64,000 nucleotides of DNA from the NCBI GenBank assembly GCA_030603365.1, contig JAUVXV010000009.1:1-64000 (forward strand). Reading direction: 5' to 3'. This document shows, piece by piece, positions 3,239 to 46,804 of the stretch. The notes under the pieces were generated by a model, which did not search any database, was not told the DNA's origin, and was given only the letters and a program-made list of their open reading frames with translations. How positions within the stretch are numbered: the stretch's first letter is position 1; every line of letters starts with the position of its first letter. This DNA is from Candidatus Heimdallarchaeota archaeon. Its GTDB lineage: Archaea > Asgardarchaeota > Heimdallarchaeia > Heimdallarchaeales > Heimdallarchaeaceae. Both the position numbers and the translations under genes were made by a program.

Positions 3239-3559
3239 GTGGTAGATGAAGGAGTATCAGTGGAAACTCTAGTTGAAAGACTAGGACGCACTAAACGCCT
3301 TATCCTCATAGAACTTACTAGGGGAGCAGTTGGATATAAAAAACTTTCAAAGAAACTGAAAATAGGTTTAGATACTATTAGGTCACATATCAAAACTGGT
3401 AAGCATTCAAATTCACTAACTCAACTTGGATTGATCAAGCAAGAGGAAAGGGGCTGGTCAATTACCGAACTAGGTAATAGTGTGTTAGAACAATTGAAGA
3501 GAGATCCTGAATATGCACCATACTTTGTTGAAGCTCCCAAAATGGAGAATGAAGCATAA
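3239..3559 (+). CDS. Winged-helix DNA-binding protein
   Basis: HTH (YKKLSKKLKIGLDTIRSHI) followed by wing GLIKQEERGWSITELG. Confidence 0.8.
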   Translation: MVDEGVSVETLVERLGRTKRLILIELTRGAVGYKKLSKKLKIGLDTIRSHIKTGKHSNSLTQLGLIKQEERGWSITELGNSVLEQLKRDPEYAPYFVEAPKMENEA

Positions 3560-3620
3560 AGAGGATGAAAATCTCTTTCTTTTTTCTTTTTTTTCTCTTA
3601 ATAACATTCCAAAGCTTTGG

Positions 3621-3713
3621 TTAGGAGTTAATGATTCTTTCTTTTCCTAGGATATCAATAAATGTTCCAGCCCTAGGTCCAGATCTTTTTCCTAATACTG
3701 TCACATAGAGGGT
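3621..3713 (-). pseudogene. lysS: 3' remnant of a class I lysyl-tRNA synthetase
   Basis: Manual minus-strand translation gives TLYVTVLGKRSGPRAGTFIDILGKERIINS*, aligning with LYNILLNTDRGPKLGPYVHTIG of the intact LysRS; preceded in frame by TGA. Confidence 0.8.
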
Positions 3714-3896
3714 TCAACCTATTAAGTGATGCCCCGCTGGATGCGTTAGATCCAAAACAAGCTTAACTGTCAAATGAAAAATAGCAAAGAGCTACTCTTC
3801 TTCTTTCTTTTTACTAGATGTAAGAGTAATTAATATAAAGGACTGCTTTTGAGTTAACTCAAGTATTGATATTAAATTAAGTTAGGCTGATGAAAA

Positions 3897-5561
3897 GTGT
3901 CCCAAGATTTTGACTTTGGCGAAGATAACGATGATGTTATCGGTAGAGGTACTTGGATAGACAAGCTCGCATTAGATGTTCTCAAGCGCAAGGATAACTT
4001 GAAAGGAGATCATCCTGAGATTGTTCGAACTGAAAGTGGTTTAGGCGCGTCTGGCTTTCCACATATCGGTTCATTTGCAGATGCATCCAGAGCTTATGCA
4101 TTCAAATTAGCTATTGAAGAATTAGATCGAAAAGCAGAATTCTTAGCATTTGCAGATGATTTAGATGGATTGAGGAAAGTACCAGCTGGAACACCACCTG
4201 AGTTAAAAGAACATCTTGGCAAGCCAGTCTCAATGATACCAGATCCATGGGGTTGTCATGAAAGCTATGGTCAGCACATGTCGTCTTTACTCATCGAGTC
4301 AATAGAAGATGCTGGTATTGAGTTTACCCCTGTCTCTGCATATAACATCTATAAAACAGGGAAAATGGGGCCCCAAGTTAAAAAAGTACTTAGTAAAGCA
4401 AAATTAGCTGGACAGATAATCAAAGATACAACTGGACAAGAAAAATATCTTGAAGTACTCCCTTATCATGCGGTTTGCGAAAAATGTGGTAAAATCTATA
4501 CTACTCAAGCAGTTTCATTTGATGCTAAGAAGGACCTAGTAGAATACCATTGTAAAGGTGATGAGATCCGAGGTAAATTACTAGAAGGATGTGGTCATCA
4601 TGGTTTTGCTAACATAAACAAAGCTGAAGGCAAACTTACTTGGAAAGTTGAGTTTGCTGCTAGATGGGAACTTCAACAAGTTGACTTTGAAGCATTTGGT
4701 AAAGATATATTTGAATCTGTAACTTGCAATGATGAAATATGCAAACAAATCTTCGATTATGAACCTCCAACTCATGCTAGATATGAAATGTTTCTTGATA
4801 AAGGTGGATCAAAGATTTCAAAATCAGCTGGAAATGTTTTTACTCCTCAAACATGGTATAGATATGGTTCTACGCAATCCTTAGCATTATTAACTTACAA
4901 ACGAATGGCAGGAAGTAGAACTCTGGCAGTAGATGATATTCCCGTTTATATGAAAGAAATCGATTTCCTTGAAAATGTTTACTTTGATAAAGTCAAGGAA
5001 GGTAATCAAGCTCGTAAGCGCAAACTAAATGGTTTATTTGAGTATTGTTGGCACTTAAATCCACCAGAGAAAATCTCTATTCAAGTTCCATATACTTTGC
5101 TGGTTAATCTAATTTCAGTAGCACCTAAAACAGAAGCTAAACGTAAAGATTTCTTGAAATCTCGATTGGAAGAGTATGGTTACTTGCGTGATGAAGCTAG
5201 CATTAAAGATATCAAAGATAGAATTCAATATGCTGAAAATTGGGTTGAAGATTTCAAGCAATTAGAAGAAGTAACTATTAAGCTTGATAAGCAACATAAG
5301 GTTGCAATTAAAGCATTAATCAAAGCATTGAAATCAGCTGAAACTGCAGATGATATACAATCAGCAATCTTTGAATCAGCAAGAGATAATGAAGTTAAAC
5401 CAAGAGACTTCTTTAAAATACTCTATAATATCTTGTTAAATACAGATAGAGGACCAAAGCTAGGTCCATATGTTCATACAATTGGAACGAAACAAACTAT
5501 AAAGACTTTAAAGAAAAGTCTATCAGAAGAAATCATTGCTAATGATCTCAATAGCTTCTAG
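3897..5561 (+). CDS. lysS: Class I lysyl-tRNA synthetase (intact)
   Basis: SGLGASGFPHIGS (HIGH), DDLDGLRKVP, GKLTWKVEFAARW, KISKS (KMSKS), C-terminal GPKLG. Confidence 0.96.
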   Translation: MSQDFDFGEDNDDVIGRGTWIDKLALDVLKRKDNLKGDHPEIVRTESGLGASGFPHIGSFADASRAYAFKLAIEELDRKAEFLAFADDLDGLRKVPAGTPPELKEHLGKPVSMIPDPWGCHESYGQHMSSLLIESIEDAGIEFTPVSAYNIYKTGKMGPQVKKVLSKAKLAGQIIKDTTGQEKYLEVLPYHAVCEKCGKIYTTQAVSFDAKKDLVEYHCKGDEIRGKLLEGCGHHGFANINKAEGKLTWKVEFAARWELQQVDFEAFGKDIFESVTCNDEICKQIFDYEPPTHARYEMFLDKGGSKISKSAGNVFTPQTWYRYGSTQSLALLTYKRMAGSRTLAVDDIPVYMKEIDFLENVYFDKVKEGNQARKRKLNGLFEYCWHLNPPEKISIQVPYTLLVNLISVAPKTEAKRKDFLKSRLEEYGYLRDEASIKDIKDRIQYAENWVEDFKQLEEVTIKLDKQHKVAIKALIKALKSAETADDIQSAIFESARDNEVKPRDFFKILYNILLNTDRGPKLGPYVHTIGTKQTIKTLKKSLSEEIIANDLNSF

Positions 5562-5744
5562 CAGTTCTCGATATATTGCTCTACCAGTTACTACTTCTTT
5601 GAAATTTCCAAGATGATAATGACCAATAGGATCCCATCCGGTTGTTCCTACTTGTTTATTGCCAAAGACTGACAAAGCTTCTTCACTGACAACTGTAGCC
5701 CAGTGTTTGTATGCTCTTTCTTCAGCATCTTCTGGAAGAGTCAT
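5523..5744 (-). pseudogene. lysS: 5' remnant of a second class I lysyl-tRNA synthetase
   Basis: HWATVVSEE...TTGWDPIGHYHLGNFKEVVTG matches the HWAD...SGxxPSGxxHxGNxRE start of class I LysRS; truncated after about 60 aa. Confidence 0.82.
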
Positions 5745-5793
5745 TGTTTTACTGGATCATATTCCTAACTAAAAAATTATGTTCACCGAGATT

Positions 5794-7155
5794 CTATTTT
5801 CCATGAATTTTGGAATAATATAAATCCATTTTTATTTGCCAGTCTCTATACTCTGCAGGCGAGTTTGGATATTCTAGACAATGTTTGGCTACAGATTTAC
5901 TTGTATCAATTGCTTTTTTCATTAGTAGAAGTAAACTATATTTTGGAAAACATCTCAAAGCAAGCATAAGATAATTGAATATAGAACGTTTTTTCATAAT
6001 CCCTTTGGATGTAAGATCTGACTGTTTGACTACTCCTCTTTTCAATAAAAACTCCAAATTTCTTGGACCTATTCTCTCTAAAGTAATTGTTAAAATCCTA
6101 CTTCTTGCATGTTCTGCTCCGAAATTTGAAATAATCAATTTATTGTATTCCCAAAGTTTTTCTGTTGTATAATTGTTCTGTTCTATAGCTTTCTTTGCAA
6201 CTAAACCCGCAAAATATCCTGCTATAAGAGCTGGACCGTGACCTTCTGCAGTTAGAGGGTCTGCATGAAAAGCTGCATCTCCCGCTACTATGAACCCAGG
6301 AGCAACCGCATTCCAAAGAGGAGGACGAATTGATACAATTCCTCCGCGACCATCTAAAGTTTCGTATGATCCTTTTGGGTAGTATTTCTCCATCGTATCG
6401 AAGTATACCTTCTTCACACTTTTATTTTGATTATTACCTTCTTTAATAAAACCAGTACCACAATTGAGTTTATATTTTCCATCTGAAAAAAACCATATGT
6501 AACCAGGTTCCGGTATGTCTTCCTCGTATTGCAGAACGATTTTTCCATCCAATCCATGTTCTTCCTTTAGTTGTATAATCTCTCTGTAACATGAAGCATA
6601 ATCAGATTTAGTGAGTGACTTAGATAAAATTGGTTCAAATTCATCAGGAAGTTTAGTTCTTATTACTCCCATAACCCCACTACAATCGATTACAATTTTT
6701 GCAAAATATTCTACTTCTTCTCCAGCTGAATTCTTGACTATAACTCCTGAAACTTTGTTATTTTCAAGAATTGGTTTAATTACTTTTGTTACATCTAAAA
6801 CTTTAGTGCCAAGATTAATTGTATCGTGTAAGAGTCTTTGACCATATTTATGTCTATCAACCATATATCCGATGGCTGGTAGAGTAATGTGATCCATTGG
6901 AAGTGAAGTTCTTAGTACAAGATCTTCAACTAGGACATTGATTTCATTTCCTGAAGGTGGCTTAATTCCTAATTTTTCTGATACGAAATGTGATGTCTTT
7001 TTAGATATGGCCTCACCGCAAACCTTGTCTCCAATCTCTTCCATTGGTTTCTTATCAATTAGCAAGACTTCTAAGTTGCTTCTTCTACAGCTTAAAGATG
7101 CAGCAACACCAGCTGGTCCTCCACCTACTATAATGACATCATATTCATTTTTCAT
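5794..7155 (-). CDS. Geranylgeranyl reductase family FAD oxidoreductase
   Basis: GGGPAG, KVCGEA, PGYIWFF, AGDAA, PLTAEGHG. Confidence 0.9.
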   Translation of the reverse strand: MKNEYDVIIVGGGPAGVAASLSCRRSNLEVLLIDKKPMEEIGDKVCGEAISKKTSHFVSEKLGIKPPSGNEINVLVEDLVLRTSLPMDHITLPAIGYMVDRHKYGQRLLHDTINLGTKVLDVTKVIKPILENNKVSGVIVKNSAGEEVEYFAKIVIDCSGVMGVIRTKLPDEFEPILSKSLTKSDYASCYREIIQLKEEHGLDGKIVLQYEEDIPEPGYIWFFSDGKYKLNCGTGFIKEGNNQNKSVKKVYFDTMEKYYPKGSYETLDGRGGIVSIRPPLWNAVAPGFIVAGDAAFHADPLTAEGHGPALIAGYFAGLVAKKAIEQNNYTTEKLWEYNKLIISNFGAEHARSRILTITLERIGPRNLEFLLKRGVVKQSDLTSKGIMKKRSIFNYLMLALRCFPKYSLLLLMKKAIDTSKSVAKHCLEYPNSPAEYRDWQIKMDLYYSKIHGK

Positions 7156-44990: not shown

Positions 44991-45527
44991 GTGATTCATT
45001 TGTCTAAGAGAAACTATATTACAAATAAGATCGTTCTAATAGGAGATGCAAGAGTTGGAAAGACCTCTCTAGTTAGAAGATTCGTTACTAATATGTTTGA
45101 TCCTTCCTATAAAATAACTCTGGGTACAACAATTATGAAAAAAGAACTTGAATATCTTACTAACAATGTGATACTAGCAATTTGGGACATTGGAGGACAA
45201 GAGGTTTTCAGACAAATTAGAAGTAAATACTTCTTTGGAAGTAAAGGGGCTCTTGCAATTTGTGATGCTTCTAACCTTGAATCTTATAACAATCTATCTT
45301 CTTGGGTTGAATCCTTCAGAAAAGAAGTTGGAGATAAACCTATCATTTTTCTAGCAAATAAATGTGACTTAAAGAATTTAGAAGTAACTGAAGAACATAT
45401 GAAGAAAATAGTGGAAACTTACAAAAATACAGAATTCATGTTTACTTCAGCGAAAGATGGAACTAATACTGAAAAAGCCTTTACTAATCTTACTAGACTC
45501 ATGGTCGAAGAAGAGGATATAATCTAA
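44991..45527 (+). CDS. Rab-like small GTPase
   Basis: GDARVGKTS, TLG, WDIGGQ, NKCD, TSAK; no C-terminal Cys. Confidence 0.92.
   Translation: MIHLSKRNYITNKIVLIGDARVGKTSLVRRFVTNMFDPSYKITLGTTIMKKELEYLTNNVILAIWDIGGQEVFRQIRSKYFFGSKGALAICDASNLESYNNLSSWVESFRKEVGDKPIIFLANKCDLKNLEVTEEHMKKIVETYKNTEFMFTSAKDGTNTEKAFTNLTRLMVEEEDII
45461..45527 (+). repeat. Direct repeat copy 1 (Rab gene 3' end)
   Basis: 56/67 identical to 46738-46804 by manual alignment. Confidence 0.88.
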
Positions 45528-46692: not shown

Positions 46693-46737
46693 TAAACCTC
46701 TCTTCTATTTTTTTCTTTTTTTTCCTACAAAATATGA

Positions 46738-46804
46738 AACTAATGCTGAACAAGTCTTTACTAATCTTACTCGACTCATGGTTGAAGAATCGGACCTGAT
46801 CTAG
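46738..46804 (+). repeat. Direct repeat copy 2 (orphan Rab C-terminus)
   Basis: Encodes TNAEQVFTNLTRLMVEESDLI* versus TNTEKAFTNLTRLMVEEEDII*. Confidence 0.88.

Follow-up and report, generated by a model that had tools for sequence, protein, structure and literature searches.

In a Heimdallarchaeaceae archaeon belonging to the genus of AB_125, the native lysyl-tRNA synthetase gene (lysS) has been displaced at its own locus by a divergent lysS, which lies in the opposite orientation between the two surviving ends of the old gene. This displacement is real, well traced and recurrent. The locus lies in a window of 64,000 nucleotides (the whole stretch of DNA that was analysed) from a genome of 3.65 Mb in 17 contigs that is 89% complete, and its features are collected in Table 1. 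Native lysS, a class I gene, is intact between a geranylgeranyl-reductase-like gene (GGR) and a wHTH gene in 19 of the 31 family genomes, where it is co-oriented with GGR; across the family genomes, the slot between these two genes holds the old type in 19 cases and the new type in seven. The first-pass annotation, made without database searches, had described an old lysS whose middle is missing, with a divergent plus-strand LysRS in the gap, and the arrangement of the three pieces bears this out. The full-length minus-strand lysS that it suggested looking for between GGR and wHTH in relatives is the gene present in those 19 genomes. As a separate observation on the slot, a gene of 620-636 aa is inserted upstream of GGR only in G020, G016 and G005 (L031, L033 and L046).

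It had also been inferred at that stage that this was a xenologous displacement of an essential gene at its own locus but in reverse, for which simple homologous replacement was inadequate. Both parts of this inference are sustained. The slot is native in 19 genomes, the remnants are of the native lineage, the old and new types are 25% identical, and the tree of the new lysS gene is discordant with the species tree (built with FastTree). The two joints fall within the old gene, part of the donor's oppC has been carried in, and the orientation is reversed, which together rule out a clean exchange through recombination in the flanking genes. The displacing gene is a divergent isofunctional homologue too distant, at 25% identity, for homologous recombination; given this identity and the free orientation of the insert, homology between the old and new genes is excluded as the cause of the site.

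Table 1. Features of the lysS locus, with positions in the window.
Feature	Position	Strand	Basis and remarks
wHTH gene	3239..3559	+	Left flank of the lysS slot; Pfam HTH matches; kept beside the slot in 22 loci
3' remnant of native lysS, ~39 codons to true stop	3598..3713	-	nhmmer, gene nt 1520-1637, E 5e-18; alignment to intact genes
Left joint	3710..3716	.	Old-gene codons (-) and oppC codons (+) overlap by 4 nt
oppC/dppC permease 3' end, last 18 codons and stop	3710..3766	+	57 nt from the donor locus; two residues decayed
Donor intergenic region, with T-rich terminator-like tract and TATA-like box (~3820-3841)	3767..3896	+	Aligned with JABLTI01 and congener upstream regions; function inferred
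Xenologous class I lysS, intact, 554 aa (543 aa in relatives)	3897..5561	+	PF01921 E 1e-99; PDB 1IRX E 1e-50
Right stub	5529..5561	.	19-nt spacer 5529-5547, then 14 nt 5561-5548 (-) resembling old-type C-terminus, one base missing
5' remnant of native lysS, 61 codons, decaying	5562..5744	-	PF01921 1-58; nhmmer nt 1-184, E 2e-44
Native lysS promoter-like box, still present	5765..5781	-	Aligned with conserved box upstream of intact native genes; activity not shown
Geranylgeranyl-reductase-like gene (GGR)	5794..7155	-	Right flank of the slot; Pfam; adjoins native lysS in 19 genomes

Remnants of the native gene were sought with an nhmmer DNA profile built from the 19 intact native lysS genes, and the expectation values obtained mean that neither of the two is due to chance. 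Minus-strand 5744 to ~5560 had been read as a class I LysRS N-terminus, which is supported both by this profile and by the match of the minus-strand ORF 5744-5523 to PF01921 positions 1-58 (E 4e-6). The companion reading of minus-strand 3713-3621 as a LysRS C-terminus was correct as to identity, but not as to extent: the true old stop is at 3600-3598, and the stop at 3623-3621 results from a 1-nt deletion near 3628, which hides the last ten codons. A contig from run X1 still carries the missing base. The view that both remnants translate cleanly has to be given up, in light of this frameshift and of the state of the 5' remnant, which contains nine residues absent from every intact relative (0-3 in leave-one-out controls), and is altered at three of 27 invariant positions, which amounts to ~5% of the non-synonymous sites of the invariant codons. 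Strains X1 and X5 have a further change at an invariant Gly (5639). The event is still young on the scale of the genus, the flanks having a dS of >1.2, but the argument from clean remnants to a very recent date is softened by this ~5% of neutral decay. An origin of the two remnants in unrelated LysRS lineages would have refuted the displacement; both are of the native lineage and lie at the right positions. The intact genes found come no closer to the dead one than ~70%, and the remnant tree is weakly supported (38-40), which fits the remnants as the host lineage's own gene.

The insert can be assigned to a donor context through the oppC stub at its left end. Of 17 stub residues, 14 agree with the oppC that precedes lysS in JGI contig L084 (E 3e-8), and the stub resembles the oppC ends of family JABLTI01, unlike the host's own oppC end. 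All 11 genomes of one JABLTI01 genus have the new lysS type as their native gene, and oppC is directly 5' of it in eight of these 11; going by that name, we take this family to be Gerdarchaeales. Because the stub corresponds to the gene that precedes new-type lysS in Gerdarchaeales, the origin of the insert is traceable, and the insert is tied to the donor's native neighbourhood and not to the slot of a congener. A DNA search with the left stub in 83 genomes of the class gave chance matches only; a protein-level search recovered oppC. No genome was found in which this lysS allele still stands beside an intact oppC, the nearest JABLTI01 LysRS proteins are 74-77% identical to the new one, and the direct donor is unsampled.

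The codon overlap at the left joint may reflect up to 7 nt of microhomology, an inference made without the parent sequences, which are unavailable. The exact position of the right joint cannot be fixed, and its 19-nt spacer is partly common to the congeners G023, G009 and G005. Neither terminal inverted repeats nor a target duplication nor a stable hairpin were found at the joints, no transposase, integrase or recombinase ORF was found in the region, and the borders of the insert differ between genomes; the insert does not fulfil the criteria for a transposon, IS or integrative element. A sigma-70 promoter scan is uninformative for archaea. Two candidate features were rejected: a CTAG cut site shared by the G000 and G009 joints was dropped when AB_125-like contigs showed the G009 sequence to be decayed old gene, and a 13/15-nt match between an old GPR motif and the antisense strand of the new gene is not located at a joint.

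The new LysRS scores 334 bits against PF01921 (cut-off 27), is also above the cut-off for PF19269, and aligns to 1IRX across residues 37-539. It passes the criteria for a class I LysRS, with a full catalytic domain, HIGH- and KMSKS-like motifs and an anticodon-binding domain. The host genome yielded neither a second class I match nor a class II gene above cut-off, and that the new gene lysylates tRNA-Lys is inferred from its being the sole LysRS found in a genome 89% complete. A stretch of ~300 aa at host C16:171347-172174 resembles a class II aaRS and contains a single internal stop. Two tRNA-Lys(UUU) genes were called in the host (C14:73493-73588 and 325099-325175), one of which is 96 nt long and possibly intron-bearing, and no tRNA-Lys(CUU) was called. 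The stop codon of the new gene, TAA or TGA in relatives, has become GAA at 5526-5528 by a point change, and the frame extends 11 codons to a TAG at 5559-5561. It had been proposed that the gene runs into the antisense of the old gene to find its stop; the extension is confirmed, and the TAG lies at the very edge of the 5' remnant. In the 1IRX alignment, the new type is without His240 and has Asp for Glu41, and the old type has His for Tyr268, positions that presumably line the lysine pocket. At the DNA level, the new allele shares 92-93% identity with its counterparts in G023 and G009, compared with 69-81% for the flanking genes, and its dS to these counterparts is 0.21-0.22, against >1.2 for the DENN and GGR flanks. 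An allele so much closer than its flanking genes must also have moved among congeners.

The same slot has received the new type in several arrangements. G005, G020 and G023 have an inverted, clean copy of the new gene there, and in G006, G009 and G019 the copy is co-oriented. The last 26 codons of their own lineage's old gene are retained by G009 (AB_125) and related contigs, G006 and G019 retain an internal piece of the old gene, and in G019 the old promoter and first codons are fused in frame to the new lysS. G006 and G019 represent a different allele clade with a JABLTI01-like promoter. In G019 (L035), the in-frame fusion is at 5979-5950 and the internal old-gene piece lies downstream at 4280-4130; the new lysS of this genome looks like a mosaic of G006-like and G075-like alleles. 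An apparent split of lysS in G020 proved to be an assembly gap of N. In Thorarchaeia G327 (L111, G327:C3, ~1409-1441), the native Thor slot holds the new type in inverted orientation, preceded by 11 N-terminal codons of the native gene; the Heimdall old-type profile misses Thorarchaeia remnants, and this one was found via synteny and alignment.

Landings on the native gene with remnants number four (the host, AB_125, G006/G019 and Thorarchaeia G327) versus ~10 ectopic copies. Independent landings were counted by differing joints and allele clades without a reconciled tree, so that the count is approximate, and the ectopic status of four copies was judged solely from unlike neighbours. At least three of ~12 landings on a 1.8-kb target would have P <= 5e-5 even with just 0.3 Mb permissive, and neither chance nor ordinary homologous recombination explains the repeated landings on the native gene. 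Among ectopic carriers, the old slot is empty in G002, G016, G021 and G366; in G366 (L193, near 2286), the deletion of native Thor lysS coincides exactly with the start and stop of the gene, and the new type is located elsewhere. G262, also an ectopic carrier, has a single lysS match. G015 carries both types, with the new-type gene elsewhere at a contig end (L064) and an old gene in which the start codon is missing and an invariant Gly is replaced by Val (L039, 5990-4382). G328 and G179 have open frames of both types, at 7-8% contamination. In JGI contig L135 (4001-5623), a new-type lysS is found between Vps22/EAP30 and Vps25 of a ubiquitin-ESCRT cluster.

The explanation favoured here, with confidence a little short of even, is a one-step illegitimate swap that would be favoured by selection because loss of the old enzyme matters. 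A 1.85-kb foreign piece from a Gerdarchaeales-type locus, comprising the oppC end, a promoter and a complete lysS, would have joined native lysS at two non-homologous joints in one step, removing old nt ~184-1520. The anatomy of the locus, the donor context, the absence of mobile-element ends, the decay of all three relics and the repeated landings in both orientations are observed directly, as is the replacement of the middle of the old gene by a foreign segment; the single step, joining at microhomology, the route of uptake and the reason for the site are inferred. The new lysS would work backwards because it brings its own promoter, and the insert would be kept because it is the only LysRS in the cell. 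The site may be explained by selection, if the gain from the new enzyme appears only once the old one is gone; mischarging of a lysine analogue by the old enzyme is a possible example of such a cost. An ectopic copy would have to await a second mutation, whereas a one-step swap would pay immediately, and because the benefit requires that the old enzyme be gone, the rare swap could compete with the commoner route of gaining a copy elsewhere and losing the old one afterwards. A tunnelling estimate, which is only illustrative and based on assumed rates, puts the in-situ share at 2-96%; on such rates the two routes are comparable.

The ectopic carriers mostly have an empty or damaged native slot, in line with the selective reading, but neutral redundancy would likewise lead to loss of the old genes. 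In favour of the one-step swap, the relics have decayed to a similar degree. The differences at putative lysine-pocket positions on the 1IRX alignment also count in its favour. Against the one-step swap, no selective agent has been identified and the enzymes are without assay data, and G328 and G179, despite their contamination, hold both types. The 14-nt look-alike of an old-type tail fits a two-step route better, and the failure to find this allele beside an intact oppC also weighs against the swap, as does the approximate nature of the landing count. The broader proposal is of a general third route for replacing essential genes: substitutes without homology to the native gene would become fixed within it again and again, whichever way they face and with no mobile element involved, since loss of the old gene and gain of the new one must coincide. 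It is put forward tentatively, with the doubts outweighing the support.

The main rival is a two-step history of tail replacement and later deletion, possible if rather unlikely. A congener with an old-type lysS tail to tail with an oppC-lysS block would have donated the block by recombination in the old 3' part and one illegitimate joint in oppC, pushing the native tail to the far side, and the redundant old gene would later have lost nt ~184-1623 at a 6-nt microhomology. The orientation would then be inherited, and 5561-5548 can be read, with one base missing, as an old-type C-terminus that is synonymous with the native tail yet different, with a profile score reached by 0.4% of random windows (15 nt). 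However, this match is only 14 nt long and was chosen post hoc, and an 18-nt profile is not significant (11%); by HFIR-type criteria, the native tail is displaced and the replacement tail amounts to this look-alike only. The partly shared 19-nt spacer also favors such a history, as do the displaced 3' tails, 72-98% identical, downstream of several intact host genes, which show the process to be active in the host genome. No genome or contig was found with both genes adjacent, and the two-step history shifts the puzzle to the donor while leaving the co-oriented landings and the Thorarchaeia case uncovered.

The orphan 3'-end copies in the host lie 1-4 kb downstream of intact genes at 72-98% protein identity, and include the pairs C15:355571-356806 to 360374, C3:48505-49392 to 47534, C3:91985-93859 to 89565 and 87707, and C15:45963-47591 to 44877. 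Outside one repeat region, 26 downstream versus 12 upstream matches were counted. A small-GTPase-like gene at 44991-45527 (+) has an orphan tail 1.2 kb downstream at 46712-46801 (+), 63% identical.

A break directed at the native gene is an improbable cause that lacks direct support, even if it would explain the site, the free orientation and the variable joints together. A nuclease from host defence or a mobile element, acting in trans, would cut native lysS, end joining would capture foreign DNA in either orientation, and the survivors would be only those cells that captured an uncut, divergent lysS. All three Heimdallarchaeaceae landings delete old nt ~185-815, which speaks for a common target. 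However, no spacer-like match to old lysS was found in 25 genus genomes (MAGs are often without arrays), neither the cassette nor its surroundings were found to encode a nuclease, the gene was not found on any viral contig, and many ectopic copies exist.

An assembly chimera of two strains, which would have overturned the first-pass annotation, or a functional split of the remnants can be dismissed as very improbable: a contig from an independent run in another study (X5) bridges the right joint (5492-5687, 2 differences), a chimera would not yield decayed remnants, an oppC stub and an inversion, and the changes in X1 and X5 at the invariant Gly are as expected of dead sequence. The left joint is less firmly supported than the right, because the X1 contig (3337-3734; from a different study than X5) joins wHTH and the 3' remnant to just 18 nt of the insert, a reach past the old gene that falls short of the 31-nt standard. 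Positions 3735-3848 are uncovered in contigs, an absence of coverage that carries no weight.

Xenologous gene displacement in situ was reportedly described by Omelchenko et al. in 2003. For aaRS homeoalleles (TyrRS, ThrRS, SerRS), two replacement routes have been given, ectopic addition followed by loss or homologous recombination in flanking genes (Andam and Gogarten 2011, PMC3191353). The lysS types are similar in that two isofunctional forms, ~25-30% identical, alternate among relatives, often in one slot and usually one per genome, and the locus belongs with in-situ aaRS homeoallele replacement, except for clean flank recombination. Unlike either published route, both ends of the old gene remain, the new gene is inverted and a stub of the donor's neighbour has been carried in. 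Exchange and coexistence of LysRS1 and LysRS2 are also documented, with inhibitors proposed as the selective force (PMC1475646); LysRS transfers laterally there as well, but both lysS forms here are class I subtypes and the genome has no class II gene. As in illegitimate recombination during bacterial transformation, resident DNA is lost and foreign DNA is joined in without a dedicated recombinase, with microhomology inferred at the left joint. However, HFIR in natural transformation (summarised in PMC6382021) requires a homologous anchor, none of which is evident at the lysS insert, short-patch double illegitimate recombination events span 3 to ~100 bp (bioRxiv 10.1101/2023.11.22.568220) versus 1.85 kb here, and both processes come from laboratory bacteria and have not been shown for Asgard archaea. 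The host's own gene-tail replacement scars likewise involve a native gene end displaced by an insertion without an integrase, but in those the gene lives on with a changed tail and the inserted DNA has nothing to do with it; at lysS the inserted DNA is a complete replacement for the host gene, which is itself dead. Among the papers searched, none describes this case and none mentions Heimdallarchaeota together with lysyl-tRNA synthetase.

In-situ displacement of divergent genes has previously been ascribed to recombination in flanking genes or to gain elsewhere and later loss. With the joints, the neighbour from the donor locus and the two old-gene ends all preserved, this locus records a route that fits neither explanation. 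The reading of the one-step swap as an instance of a third route rests on a dominant liability of the old enzyme, or on a break aimed at the old gene; if it is true, no case before Asgard lysS would have offered several independent events that can be traced and that span two classes. The repeated landings predict that the native Heimdallarchaeaceae enzyme would have a dominant cost that is absent from the Gerdarchaeales type. A core translation gene moves often between Asgard classes, and since lysS does so, conserved synteny is no proof of vertical descent for such markers.
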